Assembly: GCA_017938245.1 (NCBI GenBank)
Contig: JAGBBX010000024.1
Location: 47,050-111,049, forward strand
Reading direction: 5' to 3'
Length of the DNA stretch: 64,000 bases
From: Bacteroidaceae bacterium
GTDB taxonomy: Bacteria > Bacteroidota > Bacteroidia > Bacteroidales > Bacteroidaceae
Part shown: piece by piece, positions 16,652-45,192 of the stretch
Position numbering within the stretch: position 1 is the first letter of the stretch
How the letters are laid out: each line of letters opens with the position of its first letter
Program-made: the position numbers and the translations under genes
The notes under the pieces: model-generated
What the model was told of the DNA's origin: nothing
Databases searched by the model: none
Seen by the model: only the letters and a program-made list of their open reading frames with translations

Positions 16652-17302
16652 TCACTCTTTCTCACCAAAGCAAAGGTCACCGGCATCGCCCAACCCCGGA
16701 ACAATATAATAATGTTCGTTCAACTGTGGGTCTACTGCTGCACAATAGAGGATTACATCCTCGGGAAAATTATTTGCAACATATTCAACAGCATATTGGC
16801 TGGCAATAACCGAGGCAAGAATAACCTTTGACGGCACACCTTTTGTACACAATGCCTTATAGCTAAGCTCGGCACTGCTACCCGTTGCCAACATTGTATC
16901 GACAAGAAGAAGAGTCTTACCTTCGAGACGGGGAGCGGCAAGATACTCTATCTTAACATCGAAATGGGTTTCGTCGATATACTCTCTATATGCCGAGACA
17001 AAGGCATTCTCGGCATCATCAAAGATATTATGAAAGCCCGTATGCAATGGGAGTCCTGCTCTTAGAATAGTTGCCAATACCACTTTGTCGAGCGGCACAT
17101 TCTGCTCCGAATCGGCAAGAGGAGTCTTTACCGTAGAGGTACCATACTGCAACTCTTTGCTTATTTCGTATGCCATAATCTCGCCTATACGCTCGACATT
17201 TCTGCGAAAACGCATACTGTCACCCTGAACATTCACATCACGAAGTTCGGAAACGAACTTATTCAAGATTGTATTATTCTTGGAAAGGTCTACAATTTTC
17301 AT
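16652..17302 (-). CDS. upp: Uracil phosphoribosyltransferase
   Basis: 216 aa with a PRPP-binding loop LLLVDTMLATGSS and C-terminal IVPGLGDAGD. Confidence 0.93.
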   Translation of the reverse strand: MKIVDLSKNNTILNKFVSELRDVNVQGDSMRFRRNVERIGEIMAYEISKELQYGTSTVKTPLADSEQNVPLDKVVLATILRAGLPLHTGFHNIFDDAENAFVSAYREYIDETHFDVKIEYLAAPRLEGKTLLLVDTMLATGSSAELSYKALCTKGVPSKVILASVIASQYAVEYVANNFPEDVILYCAAVDPQLNEHYYIVPGLGDAGDLCFGEKE

Positions 17303-17524: not shown

Positions 17525-17555
17525 AACGGCGTTGGAATGGTGTTCCAACGCCGTT
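17525..17555 (-). terminator. Perfect 13-bp stem-loop downstream of the fibre/VR gene
   Basis: AACGGCGTTGGAA tggtg TTCCAACGCCGTT, about 29 nt past the stop at 17584 and about 90 nt past the VR. T-rich sequence follows on both strands. Confidence 0.7.
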
Positions 17556-17583: not shown

Positions 17584-20500
17584 CTATGCTACTTCGGCTA
17601 TCGCCTTGTAGGCTTCGACGCTTTGCGCTCTCTCGATTTTGCCGCGGAAGGCCAGGCGCGACCCGATATACGTGTACGAGTTCGAAGCATCGTGATACGC
17701 ATTCGCGAACGACACACCGCCATGCGAGAGCGCGGTGCTGTCGCCACGATAAACCACACGGCTAACTGACCCCGCATAGTAATACTTGTCGCAGTAGTAA
17801 GTGGTCTCACTACCAGTCAATGTTCCGACTGGTATGATGTCCATATACTTGCCGTGAGCTACAGCTGTGGTAAACTGGTCTGAACCCGTCTTCGCTTTGA
17901 CTTTGCGGGTCGTGCCGTCTGGCATTACAATATACCACTTATGATCTACTGAACCCTCATTGACTGACACATTGTCCATCATATCGTACTTGTGACCATA
18001 GATATCCTCATAGCCCAAGCAGTTCACATTGTTTATCTGCACATAGGAGCCGTTTTCCTCATACCACGCATAGGTGGTCTTGTTGTTCGGGTTGACGGTA
18101 TCCTTCATGCCCAACATTGCCGTGCCGCCTGTCTTGCGGGCATTGGTGTCCTGACCGTGACCGCACTGCGCCTGGCTGTTGCGTCTGCCATACTTGGCAA
18201 AGAACAGGTTGGCTATATCTCGGTGCATATCATAGTCTATCTGCTGCATTCCGCGTGCCTGGCTGTAATAATGGAAGTCCGTCCAGTTCATACTTGCGGC
18301 GGTCGAACCTCCCGTGATACAACTGCGGAGCTTTGTGCCTACGATAGAACTACCGAACACTGCGGTGAAGCACTCTTCGTGCTCTACCCAATCAGGCTCC
18401 ATATCTTCAATCCTGTCACTGTTAGACAGCACAACCTTGTCGAACTCAGCGGTTCGATAAACAGTGAAGTGCAATTCTGTGGCTCCTGCTGGCACATCAT
18501 ATATGAGATACATTCCGTTCTCAAACTTAACCGACAAAGATGATACGACCACATTGTCGAGGACATTACCCTCCGAGTCCGTAAAGATTGAACCCATAAG
18601 GTTTGTACCGACCACTGACGGGAAGCGGACACGCTTGAAGCCCGACACCTCCACACGGCACACGGCATAATTGCTGTCGGTCGCATAAGAGTTGGCAAGC
18701 GTTCCCTTGCCTGTCATTATCTTGTACTTGTCCTTATAGTCGCCCGCATCGGTTATATCCTGGAGTGTCAGGACTGTCGCCTCGGGCACATCGGGCATCG
18801 CCTTGTTGGTACTGTAGCAACTGTAGTTCTTGCCGTTCAGATAGTCATTGATACCTTTGAACCAGTAATGGGGCTCAAACATCATCACATCGCCCTCGCT
18901 ACCGTCAAGCATTGCAGGGGTACAGTTGGTTGTCTTCTCTGCGTCTGCATAATAGTTCGAGTTCTCATCGTGCAATGGGAAGTAGGTCATCACGCCGTCC
19001 TTGTTGTTCGCCGTAGTCTCAACCCCTGCAATGGTTATATTGCGTGTGGTCGGTTTGGTGGTAACTTTGGCAAGGCAACGGAAACGCTGCTTCAGGATGG
19101 CTTTGATATGACCGCTCGGCACGTAGTCATTGCCATAGGCACAACCCGTTTGGTTGTCGGGGTTGCTCACATTGTCATCTGCAGATACGTTCTCATCGAA
19201 CTCGATCATCGTGTACTGCGGTTGCATAATGTTCAACTCTGGGTAACGTGACTTGTACTCGGCATACACTTCATCATCAAGGTAGACGGTGAGCTGGTAT
19301 GAGCCGACAAGGGCACAAGTGTCCACAGCATTGCCGTTCGCATCGATACCGCCCAAATGCTTGTATCTCGCAAGGAAACTCTCATCGCCAGTCATATTGA
19401 CACCTGTAATACGGACACGCTTCACATTGGCACAACGGGCAAGGATATTCTCCCAATCCAGATTCGGGCACTCGGCAAAGCGGAAGGTCTCAATCGAGTC
19501 GTAACCCTCTACAAGCAAACCGCTGTTGTCGAGTTTTGGCAGATATTCCAGACGCAGGGCGGTGAGGGTTGCTGGTAACACAGCTTCACGCAACGGAGCA
19601 CCTTCAGCAAACACAACACTTTGGGCTTCTGTTCCACCTGCATTCATCACCTCGAGGCGTGTCTGGTTGGAGAAGTTCAACTCCGAAGAGGAAAGCGTGC
19701 CTGTCCTGGCATTCTTCTGACCGTTCAGATTTACCTCACGAAGTTGTCGGCACTGGTCAAGGACAGCACACCAACCCGATGCACCGCCGCCTGTCGTACT
19801 CAAGTCCAGGTACTGGAGATTGGTACACTTGTTCAGGTTCACGTCACCCGTCAGATTATCTGCCACGCCTCGCATATCAAGCCTCTTGGCTCGGCTGGCT
19901 CCATATACTCGTATCGGGTCATTGACTGTGAACGCATCGCTGAAGGTAAGCGTCACCTCCTCACCCTTCTCCGCCCTTTGGGACGGCTGTATCGATGGGG
20001 AGTTGTTGGTACCATAGCCGAAGTAATACACCTCGTTGGCGGTCACCACTATCGTATTGGCTGCCTCCGTTGCAGTACGGGCAAGGTACATATCGATGTT
20101 GTCCGAACGGTAACTGCCCGTTTCGTATTTAGCATCGAGCAGGGCATATCGGTTGCGTATGGTATGAATACGATGATGCTTACGGCTGCCGTGCAAAGCG
20201 TATATATGCGGGTACTTGGTCAGCGTTCCCTTCACATCAACGCCCTCAAGCATCGGCTTGATATACTTCCATTCGCCCGACTTGTTGTACTGGCGTGCCG
20301 ACCAGTTGCCCATCTGCTCCTCATTCAGCACCTGAAGTACTCGCTCGGGGGTCATAACCTCACGCAAAGCGGCTGCATCAGACTTCAGTTCCGCTTCAAA
20401 GTTGGCAAGGATAAGACACCAGAACATACTTGCATAGCCCTCGAAGGCGTATTTGCTCTTTTCTGCGTCCCAGGTCTCACGGTCCACATCGTACTTGTAG

Positions 20501-23500
20501 GCAAGGAAGCAGTCGTTTCGCACAAGGTAGGCGGTATCGCCATCGTAGAACAGAATATACCACACCTCGCCGTCAAAGGTTATCCAGATCATATTCTTCA
20601 CACGCTGGTCGAAGCAGGTGTTGTAGTCTGTGAACACATAGAAGGTACGCATCCAGCGCGTGTTGAAATACATCGAAGCCTCGTTCTTGAACTTCTCGCT
20701 CTTGAACGATGATATATCCTTGAAGTTGACCGTATCCGCATCGGCTGGCACACAATCACGCACCCAACGCCACAGACGCATGATAGCCTCCTTCTGGTAA
20801 CTGTTAGCCTCTTTCTCGTCCTTAGCGGTGTTGGGGTTAGACCACACAGTATCCTTTGGATAATTGAACTCCAGGGCGTTCTCAAACTCTCTGTCAAACT
20901 GCGACTCTATATCCTCGTCAACCTGGAACAAACCCAATTTCTGGGAGTTGTTCAGGAACTCAAGACTGATAACCTTGCTCTCATCGATACCTGCGACACC
21001 TTCAAAACCGACAACAGGAGCCCAGCCTGACTTGTCGTTGTTGAAGTTGTACTGACCGTGGTATGTCGGCTTCTCATCGATGGACTCTGCCGAGAACATA
21101 TCGCACGGCCAACCGTTGATGGCAGTGCGGATTGTATTGTTTATCTCCTGTGGCGGGGTGAACAGGCCTATCTCCTTGAAGCAGTCATTGAACAGCTTGG
21201 CAAGACCTGTGTTGTGTGTCATTGAACTATCCGAATAGTCACACTTCGGGTTGGCAACCTTGACAGCAGGGTCTCCAGGGACAACTGGCATTTTCAACGA
21301 ATCCTGCTTTACGCCGTTAATCCAAAGCTCAGGCTCAACACCCTTGGCAAAATAGATGCGGTAGTTCTTGCGGGCATACTTGGTTGAAGAAGTTCCCTGA
21401 ATGCGGACATATACATTCTTCAGGATGATTTCACCACCCCAAGGCGGATATATGTACACATCGGCAAGGAAGTTGGTGTCCTTGTTGTTCTCGGCATTTA
21501 TCTCATCAAGACCGCCCTTGCGGACTATCAAGATAACACCCTTGCCCTTCTTGCGGATCTTCTCAATATCGATACCGAGACCTTCATCATCCAGCACGTC
21601 ATTCTTGTCTGCAAGGTCTGCCATCTCCTCCGCCGTAGGACGGTCTACGATATGGTTGCCTAACTCATCATCATCGGATATGGCTTCGTTATATATACGC
21701 ACAATGCGGACTTCAACATCGGCAAAACTGCTGTCAATGGTAATGCCTTGTGGGGTGTCCTGGAGGAAGTTGTCGGCTTCAGCGTAGATGTCCGCCTTGC
21801 TTCGCTCTCCATCGATATAGAGCTCCATCAGCCTGCCGTCAGCACGCTTGCCCACTACAAACGCCACCTTCAGCCACTCCTCTGAAGCGAACTCCATGCC
21901 GACACCGACATTGGTGACAACTTCGTTGCCGTCCTCATCGGTCACGGTCTTTGTCGAGCCTGTGTACATCGAGGCCTTCTCCGCAGTAATCTGGAATCCC
22001 TTTGGTCCAGACATACAGGTAACGACATCGCCCTCGCGGTCAACCACATTGGAAACCTTAAACTCAAGTTCGATGGAGCATCCCGTAGAGGCGGCATCCG
22101 TTGCGAATGGCTTGTAATCGATATGCGCCTTTGCACCGTTACGCAAGATGAGCGACTCCCCAGTCCAACCGCTCGACTTCCAGTCCACACCTTCGAAGGT
22201 CGTTTGAACACCGTTAGAACTCCATACTGCGGGGTTCTCCTCATCATTGCTGCGACCTGCAGCATTCAGCTTCAGAACCATTCCGTAAGTGGTCTCACCG
22301 ATATTCACGCTGCTCTCCGTCACATTGATATGGAACAGGTATTCCGTTTCCCCGCACTTGAACATCATCTCGTTTGTGCCCTGGGTGGTAAAACGGTTCT
22401 TGTATGTCTGGCTGGTGCGTGCCACGCTAACGGTGGTACTCTTCACATCACCGTTGTACACATCCATCTTGGCTGGGGTGGTGTTCGGATCATAGGCTAC
22501 ATACTCAAAGGAGAGCTGTGCATACTGCCCAACCTCAAGTGTCGGGGTCAGGTGTGTGTCCGTAAAAATACGGCCATCGGCAAAACGGAGCTTCGTACCG
22601 ATGAGCGGAACGTCCGCACCGCTCTTGAAAATGTCGATGTAGATACTTTCACTCTTCAGGACAAGACCAGTAGCCGCTTCCATCTCCGCCACCATCTGGA
22701 TTGTATGTCGGCCAAATGACAACCCCGTCATCGATATGCCGAAACTGCCGTTGGTGGTACCGCTTCGGGTAACGGTGGCGGTATTGTACTGCACACCGTC
22801 AAGATATACGGTAATGACCTTTGTTCCCGAACCGCTGACTGCATAGGGGATATTCACGGTGTCATAAACTCCATAACCACCGTTCGCAATGGAGTTGGCG
22901 AGATTGTAGGAACTTGTCAGGGAGAGGGCAACAACTTTCACCGACACATAACTCTGCTTGGTCTGTGTCTTACCCGTTCCAGGATCTATCGTGGTGGCGC
23001 GGACATAAATGTCTGTGGTACCTACCTGCAGGTATTTGGAGAGGTCAAGCGTATAAGTACCTTTGCTCACATCCTGAATGGTATTGCTGTATATGGTCGA
23101 TGAGCCATACTTCATCGACACCTCTATGGTAGCCTTCTGTCCTGTGGTCACGCCTTTGTCATCGCCACTGCTATACTGGTGGTCATAGGTATAGGAAAGC
23201 TTAGAGTTGCCTCCCTGCTTGATAATGGTGTTATCTACGGAAGCATTCAGCACAATCTTCGTGGTACTCGCATCACCGCTGCCACCGCCACTACCTGCAG
23301 GAATATCGACAGCCGCAATCTCAGCACCGCTCTTGTTGGTAAGGGCAAGGCGGACACTGCTCTCGTCATCGTTGACCTCGGCGCTCATGCCGAATACCGT
23401 ATTGGCTTCAATCTCGTTCAACTTACCTGTTACGGCAGAGTTCTGCACGGGGTTGGTGCTGTTCGCATCGAGCGTCTCATCGACCTCCACCTCGTTGATG

Positions 23501-24450
23501 GTGATGTTGACATTGCCCGTTGCGTCTGGATTCTGAACCGTCCCATTTACGGTGACAGTCTTTATGGTACCAGCACCTCCGAAATCCTCCCAGCTTGCTT
23601 CCGCATCCCAACTGCCAATGTCGGTACCGACAAACTGCTTGGTCTCCCACTTGCCCTGTGACACCTCATAGGTTATGGTGCGACCCTTGGCACGCATCTT
23701 CTCCTCCACAACTACAATGGCGGTGGCAAGGGTGTAGAATCCGTTCGCAAGCGGATATGCCTCAGTGACATTGATTGTGTTACCGCCACCGCTGCCGCTA
23801 AACTCGACAATAGTACCCTCTTCGGAGTTCCATACATAACCGACCGCCCCGAACAAATAGATTTTATCCTTGTGAATCACGGTGTGGGCATCGTCACTGA
23901 AGAACTGGGTTGCCTTATCCCAGAACACATAGTATCCTCCACTACAGAGAGCGGCAAAGACGTTCAGGGCTTTAACAAAAACAACGCTCTCGGCCGAAGC
24001 TGGCGCCTCACCGTCAATAATGGTCGCATCATCAACGAAACCGTCAAATCTTACTGTTGCCCCTTTCAGGGCTGCCAATGCCGTTGACTCGTGGGTCGCA
24101 ACGACCTGGAATGCCTCTTCTGTTGCTGAGCGGGCATCACTTGTCGCCCGTTCTGCCTCGAGGGCTGCCTGCCCTGCATTATCCGCCGCCTCATTTGCTG
24201 ATTGCGCTGCAGTCTCGGCTGTGGTTGCCGCCGTAGTCGCCTTTGTCGCTGCCGCATTAGCCGTTTTTGCTGCATCTTCAGCTGGTTTGCGCAACAAGGA
24301 CACAGGCGCACTTACAACCTCCTCGCCACGCATTGCGGGAAGACTGTTTATGCCGTCCAGGCTATCCACAACTGGAAGCTCGTCAACACTCTGCGATTCC
24401 GCCTTGATGGCGTTAATCAATTCCTGTTTTTCTGCATTCGTCAGTGCCAT
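17584..24450 (-). CDS. Giant tail fibre/receptor-binding protein; DGR target
   Basis: 2288 aa. Regions by residue: Ala-rich coiled N-terminus, Ig-like repeats, LamG-like (about 720-925), CotH-like (about 1000-1345), LRR-like (about 1525-1700), C-type-lectin/FGE-like C-terminus carrying the VR (about 2229-2269). Confidence 0.9.
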   Translation of the reverse strand: MALTNAEKQELINAIKAESQSVDELPVVDSLDGINSLPAMRGEEVVSAPVSLLRKPAEDAAKTANAAATKATTAATTAETAAQSANEAADNAGQAALEAERATSDARSATEEAFQVVATHESTALAALKGATVRFDGFVDDATIIDGEAPASAESVVFVKALNVFAALCSGGYYVFWDKATQFFSDDAHTVIHKDKIYLFGAVGYVWNSEEGTIVEFSGSGGGNTINVTEAYPLANGFYTLATAIVVVEEKMRAKGRTITYEVSQGKWETKQFVGTDIGSWDAEASWEDFGGAGTIKTVTVNGTVQNPDATGNVNITINEVEVDETLDANSTNPVQNSAVTGKLNEIEANTVFGMSAEVNDDESSVRLALTNKSGAEIAAVDIPAGSGGGSGDASTTKIVLNASVDNTIIKQGGNSKLSYTYDHQYSSGDDKGVTTGQKATIEVSMKYGSSTIYSNTIQDVSKGTYTLDLSKYLQVGTTDIYVRATTIDPGTGKTQTKQSYVSVKVVALSLTSSYNLANSIANGGYGVYDTVNIPYAVSGSGTKVITVYLDGVQYNTATVTRSGTTNGSFGISMTGLSFGRHTIQMVAEMEAATGLVLKSESIYIDIFKSGADVPLIGTKLRFADGRIFTDTHLTPTLEVGQYAQLSFEYVAYDPNTTPAKMDVYNGDVKSTTVSVARTSQTYKNRFTTQGTNEMMFKCGETEYLFHINVTESSVNIGETTYGMVLKLNAAGRSNDEENPAVWSSNGVQTTFEGVDWKSSGWTGESLILRNGAKAHIDYKPFATDAASTGCSIELEFKVSNVVDREGDVVTCMSGPKGFQITAEKASMYTGSTKTVTDEDGNEVVTNVGVGMEFASEEWLKVAFVVGKRADGRLMELYIDGERSKADIYAEADNFLQDTPQGITIDSSFADVEVRIVRIYNEAISDDDELGNHIVDRPTAEEMADLADKNDVLDDEGLGIDIEKIRKKGKGVILIVRKGGLDEINAENNKDTNFLADVYIYPPWGGEIILKNVYVRIQGTSSTKYARKNYRIYFAKGVEPELWINGVKQDSLKMPVVPGDPAVKVANPKCDYSDSSMTHNTGLAKLFNDCFKEIGLFTPPQEINNTIRTAINGWPCDMFSAESIDEKPTYHGQYNFNNDKSGWAPVVGFEGVAGIDESKVISLEFLNNSQKLGLFQVDEDIESQFDREFENALEFNYPKDTVWSNPNTAKDEKEANSYQKEAIMRLWRWVRDCVPADADTVNFKDISSFKSEKFKNEASMYFNTRWMRTFYVFTDYNTCFDQRVKNMIWITFDGEVWYILFYDGDTAYLVRNDCFLAYKYDVDRETWDAEKSKYAFEGYASMFWCLILANFEAELKSDAAALREVMTPERVLQVLNEEQMGNWSARQYNKSGEWKYIKPMLEGVDVKGTLTKYPHIYALHGSRKHHRIHTIRNRYALLDAKYETGSYRSDNIDMYLARTATEAANTIVVTANEVYYFGYGTNNSPSIQPSQRAEKGEEVTLTFSDAFTVNDPIRVYGASRAKRLDMRGVADNLTGDVNLNKCTNLQYLDLSTTGGGASGWCAVLDQCRQLREVNLNGQKNARTGTLSSSELNFSNQTRLEVMNAGGTEAQSVVFAEGAPLREAVLPATLTALRLEYLPKLDNSGLLVEGYDSIETFRFAECPNLDWENILARCANVKRVRITGVNMTGDESFLARYKHLGGIDANGNAVDTCALVGSYQLTVYLDDEVYAEYKSRYPELNIMQPQYTMIEFDENVSADDNVSNPDNQTGCAYGNDYVPSGHIKAILKQRFRCLAKVTTKPTTRNITIAGVETTANNKDGVMTYFPLHDENSNYYADAEKTTNCTPAMLDGSEGDVMMFEPHYWFKGINDYLNGKNYSCYSTNKAMPDVPEATVLTLQDITDAGDYKDKYKIMTGKGTLANSYATDSNYAVCRVEVSGFKRVRFPSVVGTNLMGSIFTDSEGNVLDNVVVSSLSVKFENGMYLIYDVPAGATELHFTVYRTAEFDKVVLSNSDRIEDMEPDWVEHEECFTAVFGSSIVGTKLRSCITGGSTAASMNWTDFHYYSQARGMQQIDYDMHRDIANLFFAKYGRRNSQAQCGHGQDTNARKTGGTAMLGMKDTVNPNNKTTYAWYEENGSYVQINNVNCLGYEDIYGHKYDMMDNVSVNEGSVDHKWYIVMPDGTTRKVKAKTGSDQFTTAVAHGKYMDIIPVGTLTGSETTYYCDKYYYAGSVSRVVYRGDSTALSHGGVSFANAYHDASNSYTYIGSRLAFRGKIERAQSVEAYKAIAEVA
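17644..17766 (-). repeat. DGR variable repeat (VR)
   Basis: The reverse complement aligns to 43073-43195. The 113-nt core (17651-17763) has 11 mismatches, all at TR adenines. It encodes ...SRVVYRGDSTALSHGGVSFANAYHDASNSYTYIGSRLAFRG. Confidence 0.92.
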
Positions 24451-27394: not shown

Positions 27395-29501
27395 TTCCTT
27401 CGTAATTGTCTGCGGATAGTTCCGCCATAGTTATCTCACTGCTGTCCTGTAACAGGTTCTGGACCTCCGACAACAGGATATATTTACCCGAAGAGCTCGC
27501 ATCGGTGTGGATCTTCAGGTCAGGAAGAAGGCGCACCGTTCCCGACAGGGTATTATGACGCGAACCGTACTGGCTGTAAACCGTTCCGATAAGCAGCCTC
27601 TCAAGCCTGTCCTCCACCCCTGCGCGGTAGAATGTCTGGTATGCCTTGTAAGTCGAGTCCATAACAAGACCTCGGGCCGATGGCGACCAGGTCTTTCCAA
27701 GAGTGCCGAGAATGGTGTCAATGGTCAGCTCTTCCTTTGCCGCCTTGTTTATCCAGGCGGTGTCCTCTATATCGTCCAATGAAATGTCGGTACCGTTACT
27801 GTTGACCAGCGTAACAGTTGGAGTCTGATACATCAGCCAACGGGCACGGGAATAGATGTCCTTCTCCTCCCGCTTGTAGTCAAACTGGTAGATGCCCCTG
27901 CCAATATGAAGCTCGAGGAATCCGCCATTGTATGGGGGAAGGTCTATGAACTCACCGTCGCCCATCGCCTTCCATTTTTTAGGAAGCCCGCCACGGTAAT
28001 AGCCGATTATGGGCTTGTTCTTGCTCCATCCTCCGAACCCCGTCTTACTCTTGCGGTTGTCCCAATCATAATAGCAGAGCCACATACAGCCCCATTTGCC
28101 CGCACCCGACACCCACTTGCTGTTTGCCGCAGTATGCTTGTAGCCGTCCAAATCAATGACTCCGCTGTTCTCGTAGTGGTACAGGATTTTGCCACTGGCA
28201 TCTTTCAGATAAAGCATAACGGGGACATACCCCACATTACACCAGTCGTTAAGACGTTCCCAGTTCCCGCTTTCATTCTTTCCTGAAGCATCTTCAAAAG
28301 GATTGTAACGGACATCAAACAGCAAATCAAGGGTTACCTTCAGCTTGAAGGATGTACGCTTATAACTTACATAACCCAGGAATGAGGGCTTCGTTGAAAT
28401 GATAGGCACGGAAGTACATACGCCATTGTTGCGGGCTTTGACAAAAGAGTTCAACAGGTTCTGGGAGTAGTTCGTCTTTCCATTGCCTTTATACCCCCAT
28501 ATAACACCTGCTTCGTCATTGCCGCTGAAATCACTGTCGATACGGTAATACTTGGCTCCATTGGCAAGAGTCATCGGCAGATCATCCTGATCGCCCACAA
28601 CGATTCGGAACCCGTCTGCCGCATTGTCCCAATCATAATCCATCAGATACTTTCGGGTAGCCTCTTTGTCTGGCAGCACATTGTCGTGCTCCAGCTCTGT
28701 ATTCACAAGCTTGGCATCAGCGTATGGGGAGAAGGTGACCTTCACGTTGTTGTACACGACATCCACACCCAGATAGGCATCATCGCCCTTCCACCATACT
28801 TCCTCCGTATCCATGTCACTGTACACGGCATTCATATCAAATATATACAGATATCCCCCCTTCTGAACCATACGGAGGGCAAAGGGGCGCAGGACTTCAT
28901 CGAGGACTTCTCGCATTGTCATCGCCTCGCCGTCTTCATCATAGAAGTTATCGTTCAGCACATAGAGGGACGAGAAGTTTATTGCACTACCGTATTGGGA
29001 GGTCTTCGTGCTGATGAACTTCTGCACCCCGTTGTATTTTATGCCCATTGCGGCGATGCAGGTATCTATGACATCCTGAATGGTGCAGACCCCCGTCTTG
29101 CTCCACTTCACACGGTCAAGGACTGCAAAATCGGAGAAGGAGAATGTCACATCATAGTCCGTCTTCTCCGAATAGGGTTCCTCGTAAAGCTCCGTATCAA
29201 GCTGGCCCGACCAATACAGCTTGCCGTTCCTGTAAACATCGGCACGCATCGTGCCTACCTCAATGGAATAGAGGTTTATGAACTGTCGGTCTTTCAGACT
29301 CTGCAGGGTAAGTGTCAGACACGAGCCTTGCACTGGTTCCAGCTTGTCAACCTCATTCCACTCAATTTCAACGGGGGTGTCATAGGCGAACTTAACCTCC
29401 TGCGACGAAGCAAATGATGTATCACTGGACAGGATGTCCACGCGATACAGCACACCGTCCACACTGCGGAATGACCCCGTATATATTACCTGCATTGCCA
29501 T
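27381..29501 (-). CDS. Distal tail protein-like
   Basis: 706-aa ORF immediately after the tape measure, with a TAATG stop/start overlap. Confidence 0.7.
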   Translation of the reverse strand: MAMQVIYTGSFRSVDGVLYRVDILSSDTSFASSQEVKFAYDTPVEIEWNEVDKLEPVQGSCLTLTLQSLKDRQFINLYSIEVGTMRADVYRNGKLYWSGQLDTELYEEPYSEKTDYDVTFSFSDFAVLDRVKWSKTGVCTIQDVIDTCIAAMGIKYNGVQKFISTKTSQYGSAINFSSLYVLNDNFYDEDGEAMTMREVLDEVLRPFALRMVQKGGYLYIFDMNAVYSDMDTEEVWWKGDDAYLGVDVVYNNVKVTFSPYADAKLVNTELEHDNVLPDKEATRKYLMDYDWDNAADGFRIVVGDQDDLPMTLANGAKYYRIDSDFSGNDEAGVIWGYKGNGKTNYSQNLLNSFVKARNNGVCTSVPIISTKPSFLGYVSYKRTSFKLKVTLDLLFDVRYNPFEDASGKNESGNWERLNDWCNVGYVPVMLYLKDASGKILYHYENSGVIDLDGYKHTAANSKWVSGAGKWGCMWLCYYDWDNRKSKTGFGGWSKNKPIIGYYRGGLPKKWKAMGDGEFIDLPPYNGGFLELHIGRGIYQFDYKREEKDIYSRARWLMYQTPTVTLVNSNGTDISLDDIEDTAWINKAAKEELTIDTILGTLGKTWSPSARGLVMDSTYKAYQTFYRAGVEDRLERLLIGTVYSQYGSRHNTLSGTVRLLPDLKIHTDASSSGKYILLSEVQNLLQDSSEITMAELSADNYEGIEFS

Positions 29502-32500
29502 TATTCTGTTCTCTTTTGGATTCGTTCTGTCTTTTGTAAAATTCCCTTCAGCACTCGGCCATCGATAACAAACTCAACCTTGCCGCCTCCCGTTCCTCCT
29601 TCAAGCCCTATAATGGACTTCAATTTATCAAGAGGGGCTACTACTTCAGGGTTGTTGGAAGCACCTGCATACTCTCCGAAGATACCCAACGTAGGACCAT
29701 AGGCGATACCGCCATCCGCGAATTTGGGGATGGAAGCTACGGCAGCACCTACCGCTGCCATACTTGCGGCGAGGGCTATCAGGTTGTAAGGGAACGGCAC
29801 TGTCTGGGACTGTGCAGCTGCTCCCGAGAACGCTTGTGCGATGTTACCTCCGATAACCGAAGCTAACGCTGGCATCGCCTGTGCGACTGCAGTCAGGATA
29901 TTGGCACCATAAGAGAGCCAAGCCCCTGCACCTTCTCCAACGACACCAGACAACGAACCCATAAGCGAACTCAAGTTACCCATTGCCCCTGTAAGCAGGT
30001 CGCCCTTGCTATTCGTAGAGGTGATGACCTTCTCATACTTCTTCCACGAGCCAAGCAGACCTTCAACCTCCTTGCGCTGGTCATCTCCCAACGGGTTCTT
30101 CGTATCATCAAGCATACGCTGCAACTGGCGGATGCGTGACTTCACGGTCTCAAGTCCGACCATCTCCAGCTTCATCTGCAGACCATTGCCCGTCAGTGCA
30201 TCCAACTCGGCAATTTCCTGCTGCATGGACGGGATATCGGTCAGGCTCTTCAATGCATCCCGCTTTGCCTCCAGTGCCTGGATTGTTCTCTGTATGTTCA
30301 CAATCTCAGTGGCGGTAGCATTTTTCTGCTGATTGCTGTAATAGGTTATGGCATTGTCAAGCTCCGATATGGTATCAAGGGTTGATATATCGCCTGGAGC
30401 ATTCATTGCCGCCAATGTCGCATCCCATTCGCCACGCAGACGCTTCAGATCGTTTATCCACTTCTGCACTTCTGCACGCTCTGTCCCTGTTGTACGCTGA
30501 AGCTTCGCCTCATAATAGGACAGCTCGGCGTTCAGCTGTTCGTATGTGGTTATCTGGTCAATGCCTACTTCTGTGTGCGCACTATCTTCTAATGCCGTTC
30601 TAAGGGCGTTCAAACGCGCTATCTCGGCATCAATGCCAGCAAGATTTTCTGCAGTGGCGGTAGTACGCAGCGACTGTTGGTACTCCAGTTCCGCATCAAT
30701 AGCCTGGAGTGTATTCAATTCCTCGGGGCGATTGGCTGCAGCCCATTGCCGCTCGATAACAGTCTGGGCATCCTTGTATGCCTTGATCTTCTTATGGAGC
30801 AAGGCTATGGTTTCCGTCTCTGTGGGCTTGGTTTCCTGAAGCTTCTTCTCATAGTAAGAGACAGCATCTGCAAGTTCCTTGTATGTTGTCGGATTGGCTA
30901 CAGGCTTTTGCTCTGCCGTAGTCTTTCCCGTTTTGCCCTTACCTGAGCCTGTAGCATTGAAATCAATCTTGACCTCCTTGTTCTTCTTCTTGGCTTCGGT
31001 ATTGGCTTCTATTGATTTGGTCTGCTGGTCCAAGGTCGTTGCCGCTTCTTTTGCCGATGCGTCATCCTTGATACCGAAGAACTTCTTCACCCATTCCCAG
31101 GCTTTTTTTATGACGGCACTTGCCTTCTCGAAGGCTGCTACAAGGAAATCCCATACGGCAGAAGCCACTTCCTTGACTGCTCCCCAGACCTTGTCACAGA
31201 TATTGCGGAACCCTTCAAAATTATTGTAGGCATAAATGACTCCTGCCACCAACGCTCCGATGGCGGCGATGACAAGCCCGATGGGGTTTGCCGTTAGTAC
31301 CAGGTTCAACACCTTTTGAACACCTGTCCATACGGCAGTGGCTGCAGAGGCTGCTTTTGTCGCCACATTCTGGAGAATGGTGCTGCCAGTCAATTTTACC
31401 ACAACCTGGTTCAGTGTTGTCATTCCCGAATAGGCACTCTTCATCATCGTACCCATCAGGGCTATGGCATCGGCATTCTCCATTGCGAGGGCAGTGTACG
31501 GTGCCATAGAACCGAGCATCTCCGTAAAGCCTATCTTGATATTGTCCACCGATGCACGGAGCTCCTGCATACGCTGGGCAGTGGTTGCCGTTCTAACCGC
31601 TGCCTGTTCCTCGGCAACGGCGGTACCCGTAAGCTGGGCAGTCATCTCATCCACTGCTGAAGCGTTCTGGATAAGGAACTGCGCTGCAGCAATGTTTTCC
31701 ATACCGAAGACTTTTGACAGATAGGTCGCATCGGAAAGTTTGGGCTTCAGTGCCTCCAGGGCTGTGCCCAACGAGGTTTCGCCCAAGTCAATTCCCAGCT
31801 CTGTGTTAAGCTTCAGTATTATATTGCGTAAAGCGGTACCCGCCTCGCTTCCCTTGAGGTTTGCTTGTGAGAGGATTTCCAAAGCTCCTGCAGTGGATTC
31901 CACATCCAAGCCCATAGCGGAAGCGGCAGCACCCACCACCTTGAACGACTGCGAGAGATCTTCTATCTCCGCAGCACCGTATTTTGATCCAGCAGCAAGA
32001 ACATTGATAACGCGGTCCGCTGCTTCAGCCCCGAGACCGAACTGGTTGATTGTTCCCGCAAGAGCGTTTGCCGCTCCATCAAGGCTCATACCCGAGGCGT
32101 GCGCCAGCGTGATGGACTTCTCCTCGAGCTTATTCAAGCCGTCAATGCCGATTTTCGATATTTCAATTTGAGAGGCAAGCAAAGAATAGGCACGGGCTGC
32201 GGCATCAGCACCCAAGCCCGACTCCTTACCGAAACGGCGGCTGTTGGCCTCAAGTCCCTCCAGTTCCTCACCCACGATACCCGTAATGGAGCTCAAATCT
32301 GCCATTGACTGTCCGAAACTCATACCAGTTTCGGTTGCACTGGCGAACTGTGCCCCGAGCCGTTCCGCTACCTGCAGCATAGCGTTGAAGTTCGGCATCT
32401 CGAGCTTGCCAAGGGCAGACTGGAACTGCTGCATCTTCGTCTGCGTCTTGTCAACATCGGTCTGAAGGTCATTGAACGCACCAGTGATCTTCTTCACCAT

Positions 32501-32548
32501 TGCGGAGACCTTATCCTTCAACTCTACTATAAATGACACTGATTTCAT
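29501..32548 (-). CDS. Tail tape measure protein
   Basis: 1015 aa, Ala/Gly-rich and helical with hydrophobic segments. It follows the G/T chaperone pair. Confidence 0.9.
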
Positions 32549-32571
32549 ATCGCTCTGTTTATTTGTTACGG

Positions 32572-32880
32572 CTAACGCAAACCAAATCTGCGTTTTGCCT
32601 TTTCATATCTGGCATTGACCTCCTCGCGTGTTTCCTCACGCCTTTCGGTCTTTACCTCCTGCTTCTCCCATGGGAACTCCATAATATCTGTAGGGCGGAG
32701 TTTCTTCTTGCTGTAAGGCTGGAGGGAACACAGGCACGACATCCTCACACGCTCCCACTCGCCACGCTCAAGGCGTTCCCGTCCTCCGTTCCAGGCATCA
32801 AAGGTCGCCTTGAACTCAGAAGGGGTGCATCGTTCAAAGTCTTGCATACTCATTCCGATACACCCCAACGCTATTCCCAT
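32572..32880 (-). CDS. Tail assembly chaperone, -1-frame (T-like) segment
   Basis: The frame is -1 relative to 32904-33197 and stays open from the A9 slippery run into this ORF. Confidence 0.6.
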
Positions 32881-32903
32881 AAGTGCTTCTATGCCTCCTG
32901 ACT

Positions 32904-33197
32904 CTACTTCATCGGAGTGTCCGCTGTTTTTTTTTGAGTCTCCTGAACATCACCGAAGAACTCCGTGAAGTCCTCAGGCTCGAGCATATCGACAAACCTG
33001 TCAAATGCGATGTCAAATTCGACCCCGTCAGCATTACAAGCACTCTTCACGCAACACCAGACGAACATCAACATAAGGTCAACATCTGCCTGGTTCACTT
33101 CGCGGATGTCCTTGCCACTCTCACGCTTGAAGCGCACCATCGCACCCATTGTCACTCGGCAAGGGTACTCCTGTCCCTTAATCTTAATCTTCTTCAT
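32904..33197 (-). CDS. Tail assembly chaperone (G-like)
   Basis: 97-aa ORF between the major tail protein and the tape measure. It ends ...ETQKKTADTPMK over an A9 run. Confidence 0.75.
   Translation of the reverse strand: MKKIKIKGQEYPCRVTMGAMVRFKRESGKDIREVNQADVDLMLMFVWCCVKSACNADGVEFDIAFDRFVDMLEPEDFTEFFGDVQETQKKTADTPMK
32927..32935 (-). promoter_or_regulatory. Slippery A9 run (CAAAAAAAAAC) for a programmed -1 frameshift
   Basis: T9 on the plus strand. After a -1 slip the translation is [22 protein letters not shown]... with no stop. Confidence 0.6.
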
Positions 33198-33213
33198 AAG
33201 TTACGCATTAAGG

Positions 33214-33699
33214 TTATGACTGGGTGGTTGTAGCAGTCTCGCTCAAGCCGTTGCTGCCGTCCACCTTCTTGACCTCGCCCGAGTTCTCCAGCTGGACGCT
33301 GTACTTGGAGTCATCGCCCGCCTGACCGTCAAGATCCAGAGAGGTAATGATATACTTGCCAGCGTAACCGCCCGTGGTCTTGCCAGTACGCTTGTCACCG
33401 TCACGCAGAGAATATGCTGCATCTACGGGATCACCCTTCAGCATCAACTCCTTCAGCTGGTCGTAGGTCGGAGTTTCGGCGTCGCCGTCGGTAAGCACAC
33501 AGCCGTCAGCGGATATGCTCTCGCTGAAGCTCTTTACATACTTCTCCTTCCATTTGCCAGAGGAAGCCTCTTTTGTAATACGCTCACCAGTCTCAACCGA
33601 TGTGCTGACCTTACAGCCAGTGCTGAAACCGAGAGCCTTGCCACCGACACTAAGGATAAGGTCGGTACCGTCCAATACGCTTTTTGCTACTTCGCTCAT
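33214..33699 (-). CDS. Major tail protein (siphovirus, TP901-1/phi13-like)
   Basis: 161 aa. The position and sequence character fit (GTDLILSVGGKALGFSTGCKVS..., acidic/Thr-rich C-terminus). Confidence 0.75.
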   Translation of the reverse strand: MSEVAKSVLDGTDLILSVGGKALGFSTGCKVSTSVETGERITKEASSGKWKEKYVKSFSESISADGCVLTDGDAETPTYDQLKELMLKGDPVDAAYSLRDGDKRTGKTTGGYAGKYIITSLDLDGQAGDDSKYSVQLENSGEVKKVDGSNGLSETATTTQS

Positions 33700-34193
33700 A
33701 TCTTTTTGAATTTGAGTTTTACAATGATTGTTAGTAATATGCCGATGACTACACCGACAAGAAATGATATTAACGCCGTTTTAACAGGATTCGAACGCTG
33801 TTCCTTCTCCTCCTGAACAAGGCTCTGCAGACCTTCGTATGCCTCCTTGTAGGTCATGGCCATCGTCTCATAATATTCGCATTGCCTTTTCAGACTGTCG
33901 CAAATGGCATAGACGATAATTGTGTCCCGCTTGTATTGCACTACGGCATTGGCCTGACCGCTCTTGGCACGGTACTCTGCCTTATGGGGAAGCTTACGGA
34001 GGCTGTCTATCGGTATCTCCAGCATCACCTGTGACTGCGGTACCGTCACCGTCTCGATCTTCCTCACTTCGTATCGTAGGCTGTCCTCGGATTCCTGCAC
34101 CTCGTTCGATACGCTCTGGGAGCTCACCTTTCGGGAGGTCGCGCAACCTGTAAAGGACAGGGCAATCATCAGAATGCTTACAACTGTTAGCAT
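33696..34193 (-). CDS. Lipoprotein with C-terminal TM helix (unimolecular spanin-like)
   Basis: The start was taken at MLTVVSILMIALSFTGC (lipobox). The C-terminal TM is ALISFLVGVVIGILLTIIV. It overlaps the upstream ORF in a different frame. Confidence 0.6.
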   Translation of the reverse strand: MLTVVSILMIALSFTGCATSRKVSSQSVSNEVQESEDSLRYEVRKIETVTVPQSQVMLEIPIDSLRKLPHKAEYRAKSGQANAVVQYKRDTIIVYAICDSLKRQCEYYETMAMTYKEAYEGLQSLVQEEKEQRSNPVKTALISFLVGVVIGILLTIIVKLKFKKI

Positions 34194-34518
34194 CACCGAT
34201 AGCCTTGCGGAGCCTTGCCATTTCACGCTTGGTAGCACCGAACTCCTTTTTGGTCTCCCGTAACTCTTCTCGTGTCTCATGCAATTCCTTTTTAAGCGGT
34301 TCTACAATGTTTTCTATCAAAATACGGGTGGCGTGTTCAGCGTTGTCAATACGCACTGACTCAGCTTCAGCCTTTGCCCTCTCCGCTTCAGCCTTCGCCT
34401 GTTCCGCCTTGGCATTCGCCTCGCGGACCGTCGCCTTGAGCGTCAACACACCGATAAGAAGTGCCAACACCCCGCCGCCCAGTATGTAATTGAGTATTTC
34501 GCTGAACTCCATATCCAC
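33994..34518 (-). CDS. N-terminally membrane-anchored coiled-coil protein (holin- or i-spanin-like)
   Basis: TM segment ILGGGVLALLIGVLTL followed by a KAEQAKAEAERAKAEAE coiled coil. The last roughly 65 codons overlap 33696-34193. Confidence 0.55.
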   Translation of the reverse strand: MDMEFSEILNYILGGGVLALLIGVLTLKATVREANAKAEQAKAEAERAKAEAESVRIDNAEHATRILIENIVEPLKKELHETREELRETKKEFGATKREMARLRKAIGDANSCKHSDDCPVLYRLRDLPKGELPERIERGAGIRGQPTIRSEEDRDGDGTAVTGDAGDTDRQPP

Positions 34519-34523
34519 TCGTT

Positions 34524-36046: not shown

Positions 36047-36077
36047 TGTCTTCTTGTTTTTATTGGTTTGTACTCTG

Positions 36078-37692: not shown

Positions 37693-37693
37693 T

Positions 37694-43072: not shown

Positions 43073-43195
43073 ATAAGCCGTGTGGTTTATCGTGGCAACA
43101 ACAACGCGAACTCGAATGGCGGTGTGTCGTACGCGAATGCGAATAACGATGCTTCGAACTCGAACACGAATATCGGGTCGCGCCTGGCAAACAAC
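43073..43195 (+). repeat. DGR template repeat (TR)
   Basis: Adenine-rich copy of the VR. In the VR frame it reads SRVVYRGNNNANSNGGVSYANANNDASNSNTNIGSRLANN (AAC-rich). It lies about 190 nt upstream of the RT start. Confidence 0.92.
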
Positions 43196-43386
43196 CAAAG
43201 TATTTATATCGGCGTACAACACCGAGGATGTATCCTCACCGTCGTGCCGAGGGGAGCAAGCCACAGCAACAGCAGTCACAGACTGGAAAGCTGAAAAATT
43301 AAACGGACGGGTAGAGTTTGGTAGGTCCTGACGGATTCGAAGAACTTGGACCCAAGGAAGGAAGGCAACAGCCTCAAACTAACAGT

Positions 43387-44688
43387 ATGCGAAGAGAAGG
43401 TTACATCATCAAGGAGATTGTGGACTACTCCAATATGGCGGAGTCGTTCAACCAGGTACTCCGTGGCAAAAAGCGGAAACGCTGCCGCCAGGGGCGTTAT
43501 CTTCTTGCGCATCGGGAGGAGGTCATTCAGGAACTGACCAACCAGATTGCCGACGGCTCATTCAAAGTGAGCGGATATCGGGAGAGGGAGATTGTGGAGG
43601 GTGGCAAGCTCCGCCGTATTCAGGTTCTCTCTATGAAAGACCGTATCGCCGTTCACGCCATAATGGCAGTGGTCGACAGGCACCTGAAGAAGCGGTTCAT
43701 ACGCACGACCTCCGCAAGTATCGAGGGACGGGGAATGCACGACCTGATGAAGTACATTCGCCGTGACTTACAAGAAGACCCCGAAGGAACACAGTACTGC
43801 TACAAGTTCGACATCTCAAAGTTCTATGAGAATGTGAAGCAGGACTTCGTTATGTACTGCGTCCGCAGGGTGTTCAAGGACAAGACGCTCATCAACCTGC
43901 TCGACGGGTTTGTCCGAATGATGCCTGACGGTATCAGTATCGGGCTCCGCTCATCACAGGGACTGGGCAACCTCTTATTGTCTGTCTATTTAGACCATTA
44001 TCTGAAGGACAGGTACGGAGTCCGTCATTTCTACCGCTATTGTGATGACGGGGTCGTACTCGGTAACGCGAAATCGGAACTGTGGGAGATTCGTGATGCC
44101 GTCCACGAACAGCTGGAGCAAATCGACCTCAAGGTGAAAGCCAACGAGCGTGTGTTCCCAGTGGACGAGGGCATTGACTTCCTGGGATATGTCATCTATC
44201 CCGACCATGTGCGACTACGCAAGCGCATTAAGCAGAAGTTCGCCCGAAAGATGCACGAGGTAAAAAGTAGAAAAAGGCGGCGTGTTTTGATAGCAAGCTT
44301 CTACGGAATGGCAAAGCACGCCAACTGTATAATGTTGTTTAATAAATTAACAGGCAAAGAAATGAAATCATTTAAGGATTTGAATGTCGCTTACAAGCCC
44401 GAAGACGGCAAGAAGCGATTTGCGGGTGCGGTGGTAAGCATCCGCGAGTTGGTGAACCTGCCCATCGTAGTAAAAGACTTCGAGACTGGAGTGAAGACCA
44501 GCCAGGGCGAAGACCGCTGTGTCGTTGCCATCGAGGTGAACGGTGAGCAGAAGAAGTTCTTCACCAATTCAGAGGAGATGAAGAACATCCTCCAACAAGT
44601 GAGTGAAATGCCCGATGGCTTCCCCTTCGAAACCACCATCAAGTCGGAGACCTTCGGCAAAGGTAGAACAAAGTACGTCTTCACTTAG
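43387..44688 (+). CDS. DGR reverse transcriptase with a roughly 110-aa C-terminal extension
   Basis: 433 aa from MRREGY. It has the DGR-type motif SIGLRSSQ and catalytic YCDD. Residues about 321-433 extend beyond the expected thumb. Confidence 0.92.
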   Translation: MRREGYIIKEIVDYSNMAESFNQVLRGKKRKRCRQGRYLLAHREEVIQELTNQIADGSFKVSGYREREIVEGGKLRRIQVLSMKDRIAVHAIMAVVDRHLKKRFIRTTSASIEGRGMHDLMKYIRRDLQEDPEGTQYCYKFDISKFYENVKQDFVMYCVRRVFKDKTLINLLDGFVRMMPDGISIGLRSSQGLGNLLLSVYLDHYLKDRYGVRHFYRYCDDGVVLGNAKSELWEIRDAVHEQLEQIDLKVKANERVFPVDEGIDFLGYVIYPDHVRLRKRIKQKFARKMHEVKSRKRRRVLIASFYGMAKHANCIMLFNKLTGKEMKSFKDLNVAYKPEDGKKRFAGAVVSIRELVNLPIVVKDFETGVKTSQGEDRCVVAIEVNGEQKKFFTNSEEMKNILQQVSEMPDGFPFETTIKSETFGKGRTKYVFT

Positions 44689-44709: not shown

Positions 44710-45192
44710 ATGAGAAGAATTGAAGGCTCTGCAGGGGTCAAACTGATAGAATGTACACACCCTGCAAAAAACAGATGGCATATCCGTTGGGATGTGCAGG
44801 AGAACGAGGACGGCTCGGCTACCTACATGGAGGAGGAGTTCAACCACCGACCTACTGAAGACGAGATAAAGAAGACCGTTGTCGACTGGATCAACGCCCA
44901 GACGGACGAGGCTATATTGTCAGGCTTCGAGTGGAACGGCATGCGTGTATGGTTGTCTGGAGAGAACCAGTTCAACTATAAGGCAGCGCACGACCTCGCA
45001 CACCAAATGCCTGAAGCAGCCCTGCCTGTAAAGTTCAAGTTCGGCACGGACGATGAACCTTGCTATCACACATTCCAGACCGTGGAAGAACTGACGGACT
45101 TCTATGTGCAATCAATCAAGTATATTCAGGGGAAACTGGATATCGGTTGGGACAAAAAGGACGCTTTCAGTTTGGACTCATACCGAGTGTAG
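44710..45192 (+). CDS. DUF4376-like protein (fibre-assembly-associated domain?)
   Basis: 160-aa ORF directly after the RT. The assignment is tentative, from sequence character only. Confidence 0.55.
   Translation: MRRIEGSAGVKLIECTHPAKNRWHIRWDVQENEDGSATYMEEEFNHRPTEDEIKKTVVDWINAQTDEAILSGFEWNGMRVWLSGENQFNYKAAHDLAHQMPEAALPVKFKFGTDDEPCYHTFQTVEELTDFYVQSIKYIQGKLDIGWDKKDAFSLDSYRV

Follow-up and report, generated by a model that had tools for sequence, protein, structure and literature searches.

Domain architecture of a giant DGR-diversified putative tail-fibre protein from a Hankyphage-like Bacteroidales prophage

The gene at 17584..24450 (-) of the 64,000-nucleotide stretch of Bacteroidaceae DNA that we analysed (the window) is the intact tail-fibre gene of a Hankyphage-like, Mu-like Bacteroidales prophage, and its 2288-aa product is the variable protein of the prophage DGR. 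The polypeptide carries a LamG module, a CotH-like atypical kinase fold and a solenoid of leucine-rich repeats (LRR), followed by beta-sandwich and probable C-type-lectin-like modules, and the residues corresponding to the catalytic and metal-binding positions of CotH kinases are conserved among its relatives. We consider it probable that the protein serves as the distal tail fibre, that is the receptor-binding protein, of this Mu-type prophage, with a tip that is retargeted by the DGR and a kinase-like module that is active.

The gene, its surroundings and its DGR

The ORF opens with an ATG, runs without an internal stop and closes the tail module. Upstream on the same strand lie a tape measure gene (29501-32548, with PhageMin_Tail and PHROG tape-measure matches) and the genes of two large tail proteins, and the next gene downstream encodes a host uracil phosphoribosyltransferase (16652-17302), confirming the first-pass annotation, which had taken the ORF for the terminal tail gene of a prophage. 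The whole protein matches phrog_14959 with 2169 bits, and exact look-up of its sequence returned no record in public assemblies. A joining of several genes by frameshift or fusion, raised as a concern in the first-pass annotation, was ruled out by comparison with collinear homologues of about 2300 aa. At least 120 homologues of 2214-2399 aa are listed, with 54-95% identity over alignments spanning 90-100% of the query, and because these proteins of similar length are collinear with it nearly end to end, the 2288-aa ORF is a single gene and no fusion artefact.

The variable repeat (VR) occupies 17651..17763 (-), corresponding to 38 codons (aa 2230-2267), and its template repeat (TR) lies at 43076..43188 (+) as an AAY-rich sequence encoding ...RGNNNANSNGGVSYANANNDASNSNTNIG...; the pair was recovered by blastn at word size 7, having been missed by a repeat search with the default seed. 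Over 113 nt the two repeats differ at 11 positions, all 11 of which are adenines in the TR (28 A in 113 nt; hypergeometric P = 3.7e-8), confirming the earlier assignment of the protein as a DGR target. Since the VR starts at aa 2230 and leaves 21 residues before the C-terminus, it was also correctly placed in roughly the last 60 codons. Next to the TR are a reverse transcriptase (RT) gene (43318..44688 (+); Pfam RVT_1, E 3.2e-15), whose product shares 77% identity with the RT of Hankyphage p00 and by this homology would belong to the DGR clade, and an Avd-like accessory gene (44710..45192 (+)), recognised by homology and position, whose product is 62.5% identical to that of p00 ORF 40044-40529, labelled 'Avd' in PV107409.1, and matches Pfam DUF4376 (E 2.6e-5). 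The AF2 model falls to a pLDDT below 50 at aa 2234-2255, inside the VR, and the Hankyphage VR is reported to be actively diversified in culture (PMC12135933). With TR, RT and Avd-like protein, the DGR would copy the TR into cDNA with adenine errors, and the mutated cDNA would take the place of the VR, so that some dozen AAY codons are recoded; a tip with a new VR could then bind another surface ligand, leading to a shift in host range.

Modules along the polypeptide

Searched as a whole, the protein yielded little: the Pfam scan returned nothing at E <= 1 for the CotH, LRR and LamG families, the NCBIfam scan no relevant match, and phmmer against the PDB only the LRR of BRI1 (E 0.11). The first-pass annotation had made its CotH and LRR assignments dependent on significant profile matches, and by the plain Pfam scan alone they formally failed; this negative is overturned by sensitive tests, because relatives pass the CotH cut-off, the CotH fold is found at E 1e-8 and the LRR profile at E 2e-9. 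The same scan is misleading for LamG as well, since the isolated segment exceeds its cut-off. These whole-protein and single-sequence results are what a long featureless structural protein with chance or compositional domain resemblances would give, but we regard such a reading as hardly credible: independent lines agree for each module, the only significant PDB folds are two CotH entries, and the significant CotH fold, LRR profile and LamG Pfam matches refute it. Of the four domain assignments of the first-pass annotation, LamG, CotH and LRR are correct, as is the DGR-target and tail-gene context, and the C-type lectin is supported by a moderate fold match; every motif that it quoted sits at the residues it gave, and its conversion of sub-regions to nucleotide positions is arithmetically sound.

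Near the N-terminus, an Ala-rich segment (24076..24288 (-), aa ~55-125) is, judging from its sequence, probably a coiled-coil and may have a role in attachment or oligomerisation; aa 53-113 give a weak match to a PHROG 'tail fiber protein' family (phrog_3279, E 0.0016). A beta-rich region (22351..23268 (-), aa ~395-700) shows only weak BsuPI matches and possibly consists of Ig-like repeats, with a homologous region present in 74 of 149 representatives. The LamG, or concanavalin-A-like, jelly roll follows at 21670..22131 (-) (aa 774-927), where Pfam Laminin_G_3 (PF13385) is matched by the isolated segment with E 6e-7 and 30.2 bits against a gathering cut-off of 27.6; Laminin_G_3 is also detected in 15 of 19 family members, and the orthologue P0012 matches it with E 3.4e-7. 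The LamG-like stretch that had been proposed at residues ~720-925 is therefore supported above the curated cut-off by the window protein itself.

C-terminal to the CotH-like module, aa ~1516-1700 (19351..19905 (-)) form a cysteine-containing LRR solenoid that resembles those of F-box-LRR proteins. A family profile covering aa 1500-1770 (A6) matched 85 PDB chains at E <= 1, led by FBXL2 (6o60_C, E 2.2e-9), and the best 60 of the 85 are all LRR-type proteins. Pfam LRR_EndoS and LRR_4 each match 10 of 20 family members, the window sequence alone reaching E 0.0057 for LRR_4, below the cut-off, and Foldseek relates the region to SKP2/FBXL2 with a probability of 0.84-0.90. The family-profile matches bear out the earlier call of repeats at residues ~1525-1700. 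A generic beta-helix was also considered for this region and rejected, as tailspike folds matched with a probability of 0.30 or less, against the significant LRR profile matches.

The beta-sandwich module or modules at aa ~1790-2010 (18421..19083 (-)) are all-beta in the AF2 model, with pLDDT > 90. Foldseek matches them to the CBM51 structure 2vnr (probability 0.66, E 0.049) and a Pfam scan of the segment returned no match; on the model, a CBM51-like, carbohydrate-binding function is possible. The last module, aa ~2020-2288 (17587..18393 (-)), contains the VR and appears to be C-type-lectin-like, of the DGR 'CLec3' type. A multi-domain Foldseek query gave TaqVP (5vf4_C) with a probability of 0.87 and E 0.066, and the Hankyphage orthologue is reported with a C-type lectin domain (PMC6199706). 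This moderate fold match, taken with the literature, suggests that the lectin-like tip proposed earlier is real, although a C-terminal profile (A7) found no match in the PDB or Pfam. Put together, the Ala-rich N-terminal segment and the beta-rich repeats would tie the fibre to the tail tip, the LamG - CotH-like kinase fold - LRR core and one or two beta-sandwich modules would follow, and the C-type-lectin-like domain would present the 38-codon VR at the far end.

The CotH-like module and its active site

The CotH-like atypical kinase fold extends over aa ~1000-1442 (20125..21453 (-)). With an AF2 model of aa 960-1500 (pLDDT 81.9, pTM 0.83) as query, Foldseek against the PDB returned the CotH structures 5jd9 (E 1.1e-8) and 5jda (E 2.7e-8), both with probability 1.00; these were the only entries at E <= 0.001, all other PDB matches having E > 0.04, and 18 CotH-fold matches were found among viral structures. 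At the level of Pfam, four orthologues of about 60% identity (P0012, P0023, P0025 and P0082; 27-31 bits) pass the gathering score of CotH (PF08757), as do 7 of 8 distant relatives. The proposed CotH-like stretch is accordingly upheld by fold and by orthologues, but not by the Pfam score of the window protein, whose segment aa 1000-1350 stays below the cut-off (E 0.025, 14.5 bits vs 23.8), a result that counts against the CotH reading. PDB searches with a diverse CotH-segment profile (A3) gave no CotH match even at E 10, those with a full-length orthologue profile (A2) no match, 5JD9 included, and those with the distant relative P0229 likewise none.

Within the module we identified a predicted catalytic loop, D1281-QRVK-N1286, and a metal-binding motif, Y-D1303-G-D1305 (20536..20610 (-), aa 1281-1305). 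D1281, K1285, N1286, D1303 and D1305 show no variation across 43 orthologues or across 17 sequences with identities of 31-48%, so that the conservation of CotH catalytic residues, which had been put forward as a check, holds for the Asp/Asn/Asp equivalents. The motifs with D1281/N1286 and D1303/D1305 align with D-GFVH-N and W-D-Y-D of 5JD9, the sequence of which was taken from the PDB after a search with a B. subtilis CotH query (E 2.6e-140); the hhalign alignment is weak (E 0.15), which also counts against the CotH reading. The counterparts in B. subtilis CotH are the catalytic D228 and the metal-binding D251, and the substitutions D228Q and D251A abolish activity there (PMC7821199). Because the catalytic Asp/Asn and metal-binding Asp of CotH kinases are kept, the module would be an active phosphotransferase and not a dead scaffold.

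The main competitor is a pseudo-enzyme, in which the CotH-like module acts as a rigid scaffold or second ligand-binding surface and the protein is purely a multi-module adhesin or fibre, with LamG, CotH, LRR, CBM-like and CLec all serving to bind. CotH proteins of Mucorales are surface invasins. The module is flanked by the binding modules LamG, LRR and CBM51-like, it is far from bona fide CotH (8-10% identity, no HMM-to-sequence match to 5JD9), and ATP is scarce outside cells; the little ATP available to an extracellular tail fibre counts against kinase activity. Pseudokinases, however, usually lack at least one such active-site residue, and because all five are strictly invariant in relatives despite identities of only 31-48%, a working active site is to be expected. 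We therefore see the pseudo-enzyme as a real but minor possibility, and favour a tail fibre with an active kinase-like module.

The conserved active site could also belong to a DGR-retargetable effector, whose variable C-lectin tip would pick a host protein or glycan for the kinase to modify, either within the infected cell or following ejection, manipulating host physiology or excluding competitors. More than 1000 protein clusters, whose tips are interchangeable, are built on a conserved LamG-CotH-LRR core, and this CLec tip is common to only 35 of the 149 representatives that carry the core; the function of the core would therefore be independent of a particular tip. Two observations count against a fibre. 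In culture, most Hankyphage particles lack tails, and Roux et al. set the corresponding cluster apart, as an exception, from the structural targets, proposing host-signalling manipulation with a model that places the kinase near the VR (bioRxiv 10.1101/2020.04.01.020958). An effector is nonetheless unlikely in view of the position of the gene, which stands last in the tail module, directly behind the tape measure and minor tail genes as in Hankyphage, the weak tail-fibre PHROG match of the N-terminal region, and the great length and the beta-rich and LRR solenoid modules typical of fibres. A tail fibre thus remains our preferred reading, and incorporation into the virion and receptor binding would follow from it.

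A more far-reaching version of the fibre hypothesis, which we hold to be doubtful, is that an active kinase is carried on the tail fibre and its site of delivery is retargeted by the DGR-diversified lectin tip. If true, hypervariability would serve the self-reprogramming targeting of an enzyme rather than simple adsorption, and candidate substrates would be proteins or glycans of the host surface or periplasm, or else proteins of phage or host at a late stage of infection. Temperate phages of the Hankyphage type rank among the most widespread in the gut Bacteroidales of humans and animals, and their DGR is active. Given the more than 1000 clusters with this core, such a kinase would then represent a widespread unrecognised step in gut-phage infection of these bacteria.

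Relation to known systems

Among DGR C-lectin variable proteins, Mtd of Bordetella phage BPP-1 and TaqVP of Thermus share with the 2288-aa protein a C-terminal VR diversified by adenine mutagenesis, the moderate fold match being to TaqVP, but they are proteins of ~380 aa without enzyme-like or LRR modules and show no similarity detectable by profile search. Bacillus CotH (PDB 5JD9/5JDA; PF08757) has the same atypical kinase fold (TM 0.53-0.61, normalised to the target) and the same D-x4-N loop and D-x-D metal motif, spaced by 22 residues here and 23 there; it is a 360-aa stand-alone enzyme rather than a module of a phage protein, and the identity of 8-10% refers to the Foldseek alignment.

The closest described system is Hankyphage (Bacteroides phage p00, BK010646.1), whose target ORF 31489-38226, annotated as tail fibre in PV107409.1, is collinear with our protein (56% amino-acid identity across 93% of the query), is likewise preceded by genes for a tape measure and a minor tail protein and has its VR at the same C-terminal place. 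Besides RT and the Avd-like protein, ThyA (84%) and an N6-methyltransferase (71%) have homologues here, and the Mu-like backbone is shared, with Portal_Mu, Mu F and an AAA_22 MuB-like gene recognised by Pfam and a MuA-like transposase suggested by gene order relative to p00. The two phages differ in the tape measure (1015 aa here vs ~1454 aa), in the place of the p00 hub and minor tail protein, taken here by ORFs of 706, 880 and 101 aa, and in the TR-RT-Avd-thyA-MTase block, which in p00 stands behind the target but here is found on the opposite strand at a distance of 25 kb, adjoining the Mu F gene. Megablast of the tail-fibre gene against a phage collection gave no match, and because there is no nucleotide-level match to Hankyphage, the prophage would represent a different species or genus.

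The first-pass annotation knew of no description of such an architecture, a claim to novelty that fails, as the same architecture appears in several publications. Wu 2018 described DGR targets of ~2000 aa with CotH and Laminin_G_3 (category f1; PMC5758913), Roux 2020 a viral target of 2284 aa that includes a CotH-like kinase (PC_00012; bioRxiv 10.1101/2020.04.01.020958) and Macadangdang 2024 proteins of >2000 aa with CotH active regions, carbohydrate-binding motifs and LRR (domain group 3; bioRxiv 10.1101/2024.11.15.621889), and Benler 2021, also among the descriptions of such large phage DGR targets, terms CotH-lectin fusions 'currently unstudied'. Like the members of these groups, our protein exceeds 2000 aa, combines CotH with Laminin_G_3 or another carbohydrate-binding module, LRR and a C-terminal VR of probable CLec type, and is prophage-encoded in gut Bacteroidales, with no difference in kind; in size, phage origin, CotH, carbohydrate-binding and LRR modules and C-terminal VR it agrees throughout with the Hankyphage-type giant DGR targets. 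Beyond those reports, each module has here been checked on this sequence and the active-site residues mapped, which identifies the residues to mutate, and the conserved Asp/Asn/Asp motif and LamG-CotH-LRR core in a member only 56% identical to its Hankyphage counterpart strengthen the case for a functional kinase-like module. The 2288-aa protein thus adds a divergent member to a described architecture and is no new kind of system.

An intact giant gene at the end of a Mu-like prophage

The giant gene at 17584-24450 on the minus strand is a single ORF with an ATG start, 2288 codons and no internal stop. The peptide motifs quoted for its product in the first-pass annotation all lie at the residues claimed, and the nucleotide ranges of its sub-regions were correctly converted from residues. 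Homologues numbered 1896 in a search of 5.8 billion proteins; the top 120 are 2214-2399 aa long, share 54-95% identity with the giant protein and align over 90-100% of it. These nearly full-length homologues rule out an assembly or frameshift artefact, and the suspicion that several genes had been joined through sequencing error was not borne out. In a tblastn search of 50,697 phage records the protein had 48 matches, the best being Bacteroides phage p00 (Hankyphage, BK010646.1) and its kin, with 56% identity across 93% of the protein; megablast of the gene against the phage collection gave no match. The newest Hankyphage records annotate the orthologue as a tail fibre protein. In contigs from one genome per species, relatives turned up in Bacteroidaceae, Alloprevotella, Prevotella, Alistipes and other Bacteroidales, and a Bacteroidaceae relative from a water-buffalo caecum MAG shares 88% identity. 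Full-length relatives with 52% identity also lie on contigs binned to two non-Bacteroidota MAGs, Eggerthellaceae (L007) and Akkermansia muciniphila (L012), most likely mis-binned phage contigs rather than a real host jump.

As proposed, the gene is the last of the minus-strand tail module. Upstream of it lie a 101-aa ORF and proteins of 880 and 706 aa, both with PHROG matches to large phage proteins, and beyond these a 1015-aa tape measure protein (PhageMin_Tail, E 2e-23, and many PHROG tape-measure families). A host uracil phosphoribosyltransferase gene adjoins it downstream, followed by redoxin and nucleotidase genes, which places the giant gene at the prophage end. An imperfect 31-nt palindrome just past its stop codon, at the prophage-host junction (17525-17555), is probably its terminator. 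The prophage is Mu-like by its Portal_Mu, Mu F and AAA_22 MuB-like genes, and a 664-aa ORF at 52684-54678 with no Pfam match should, from gene order relative to p00, be the MuA-like transposase. The Mu F-like head protein (41281-42669, plus strand) has a weak C-terminal CdiA_C toxin-domain match (aa 385-429, E 7e-4, below cut-off) and may represent a polymorphic toxin fusion of the MuF type. Two pairs of direct repeats lie beyond the prophage, in the host flank, at 4999-5078/5084-5163 (80 nt, 93% identity) and 84-134/547-597 (51 nt, 90% identity).

Module composition of the giant protein and its family

A Pfam scan of the whole protein gave no match at E <= 1 to any family that had been proposed. 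Taken literally, this is the lack of CotH and LRR profile matches that was to count against the proposed modules, but it is overturned by Pfam CotH matches in orthologues, an LRR family profile and an AlphaFold2 fold match. The negative scan is a sensitivity artefact: the isolated segment aa 720-960 (21571-22293, minus strand) passes the gathering cut-off of Laminin_G_3 (E 6e-7, 30.2 bits against 27.6, over aa 774-927), bearing out the LamG-like module that whole-protein hmmscan had missed. Of 19 diverse relatives, 15 match this family too. Multi-domain proteins of such length should be scanned segment by segment.

The CotH-like module is backed by its fold and by its relatives. The Pfam CotH cut-off is exceeded by four orthologues of about 60% identity (E 2.5e-7 to 3.8e-6, profile positions 1-230) and, over the catalytic core, by 7 of 8 distant relatives (33-36% identity); the giant protein's own segment matches CotH alone, below threshold (E 0.025). 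The AlphaFold2 model of aa 960-1500 (pLDDT 81.9, pTM 0.83) has just two PDB matches with E <= 0.001, the B. cereus CotH kinase structures 5JD9 (E 1.1e-8) and 5JDA (E 2.7e-8), both at probability 1.00, followed by non-significant matches to the atypical kinases PIKKs, HipA and Fam20C. Predicted viral structures gave 18 significant matches, including "Spore coat protein H kinase fold" proteins, Bacillus phage G gp353, and "internalin-like" and "spore coat protein-like" proteins of crAss-like phages. When the 5JD9 sequence, taken from a PDB search, was aligned with a 17-sequence profile of the segment, the alignment was weak (E 0.15) but as expected, pairing FD(1281)QRVKN(1286) with CotH FDGFVHN and FYD(1303)GD(1305)T with PWDYDAT, the spacing between the two motifs being equal to within one residue. 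At the corresponding residues of B. subtilis CotH, D228Q and D251A abolish activity (PMC7821199). Catalytic-residue conservation had been put forward as a check: 43 orthologues, and also 17 relatives with only 31-48% identity to the giant protein, all retain D1281, K1285, N1286, D1303 and D1305. This invariance suggests, though it does not prove, a working phosphotransferase site; that the module is instead a catalytically dead scaffold or adhesin, against which the invariance speaks, is a minority reading.

The LRR module was recovered with a 20-sequence profile of aa 1500-1770, which matched FBXL2 (E 2.2e-9), a plant NLR LRR (E 3e-9), LGR4, BRI1 and others in the PDB; 85 chains reached E <= 1, and the 60 matches listed are without exception of LRR type. 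Pfam LRR_EndoS and LRR_4 are each matched by 10 of the 20 profile members, and fold search gave probabilities of 0.84-0.90 for SKP2 and FBXL2. Confidence is high across the model of aa 1500-2288 (pLDDT 86.4) save at the variable residues aa 2234-2255 (pLDDT < 50). Its fold matches include the Thermus DGR variable protein TaqVP (5VF4; probability 0.87, though with E 0.066) and CBM51-type beta-sandwiches (probability 0.66). Sequence-profile searches with the final 270 residues found nothing in the PDB or Pfam. A C-type-lectin fold at the C-terminus is therefore plausible but the least secure of the four module calls; it fits the published account of the Hankyphage orthologue. That the module resemblances as a whole are due to chance, as the whole-protein scan might be read, is extremely improbable beside the CotH and LRR matches.

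A phmmer search of 1.84 billion cluster representatives with the CotH-like segment yielded 1176 relatives, almost all of them within proteins 1600-2700 aa long; 268 reach E <= 1e-30. Among 149 new representatives (P0121-P0269), regions homologous to LamG and LRR are present in 139 and 124, against 35 for the C-terminal lectin-type domain and 42 for the N-terminus. Judged from these homologies, LamG-CotH-LRR is thus a conserved core shared by over 1000 protein clusters, and the ends are exchangeable. Some representatives have BspA-type LRR_5 domains in place of the lectin-type C-terminus (P0173, E 1e-39), so many such proteins may not be targets of a DGR.

Diversification of the tip and proposed function

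A repeat finder at default settings missed the variable and template repeats (VR and TR), which short-word blastn recovered as 17651-17763 (minus strand) and 43076-43188 (plus strand). All 11 differences across the 113 nt fall at adenines of the TR (28 of its 113 nt are A, giving a chance probability of 3.7e-8). The TR encodes an AAY-rich peptide, RGNNNANSNGGVSYANANNDASNSNTNIG, and the VR encodes RGDSTALSHGGVSFANAYHDASNSYTYIG, aa 2230-2267 of the giant protein. After the TR come the reverse transcriptase gene (RT, 43318-44688; RVT_1, E 3.2e-15; 77% identical to Hankyphage RT) and a 160-aa Avd-like ORF with 62.5% identity to the Hankyphage ORF annotated as Avd. The DGR block (42779-47195, plus strand) comprises, in order, a 77-aa ORF with hydrophobic segments (apparently two-TM), TR, RT, the Avd-like gene, thyA and an N6-methyltransferase gene, and has the Mu F gene on one side and the early genes on the other.

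We think it probable that the giant protein is a phage distal fibre and that mutagenic retrohoming rewrites its lectin-like tip, which would let it follow variable Bacteroidales surface structures; we infer its placement in the virion, and Hankyphage tails are seldom assembled in vitro. The LamG, LRR and beta-sandwich modules would add further binding sites or act as spacers, and the conserved CotH-like module would be a putative enzyme. That the protein is a DGR-retargeted effector and not a fibre is unlikely, with the conserved active site on its side and the tail-module position against it.

Comparison with described DGR targets

The window's DGR block lies 25.3 kb from the VR on the opposite strand, whereas in Hankyphage p00 and most relatives the equivalent block directly follows the target gene. 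The relatives L005, L010 and L015 likewise lack an RT in the 10 kb that follow the target downstream. The Hankyphage DGR diversifies the orthologue of the giant gene in culture (PMC12135933). The giant-protein observation is confirmed and its domain interpretation largely so; the view that the architecture had not been described was mistaken, since CotH-bearing giant DGR targets appear in Wu et al. 2018, Roux et al., Benler et al. and Macadangdang et al. 2024. "Category f1" targets are about 2000 aa long, have CotH and Laminin_G_3 as main motifs and are probably phage-derived (Wu et al. 2018, PMC5758913); the viral target cluster PC_00012 carries a CotH-like kinase, with a 2284-aa member modelled (Roux et al., bioRxiv 10.1101/2020.04.01.020958); and a Bacteroides "domain group 3", with targets longer than 2000 aa that combine CotH, carbohydrate-binding and LRR motifs, has been defined (Macadangdang et al. 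2024, bioRxiv 10.1101/2024.11.15.621889). The giant protein is a divergent new addition to this already described class of phage DGR targets.
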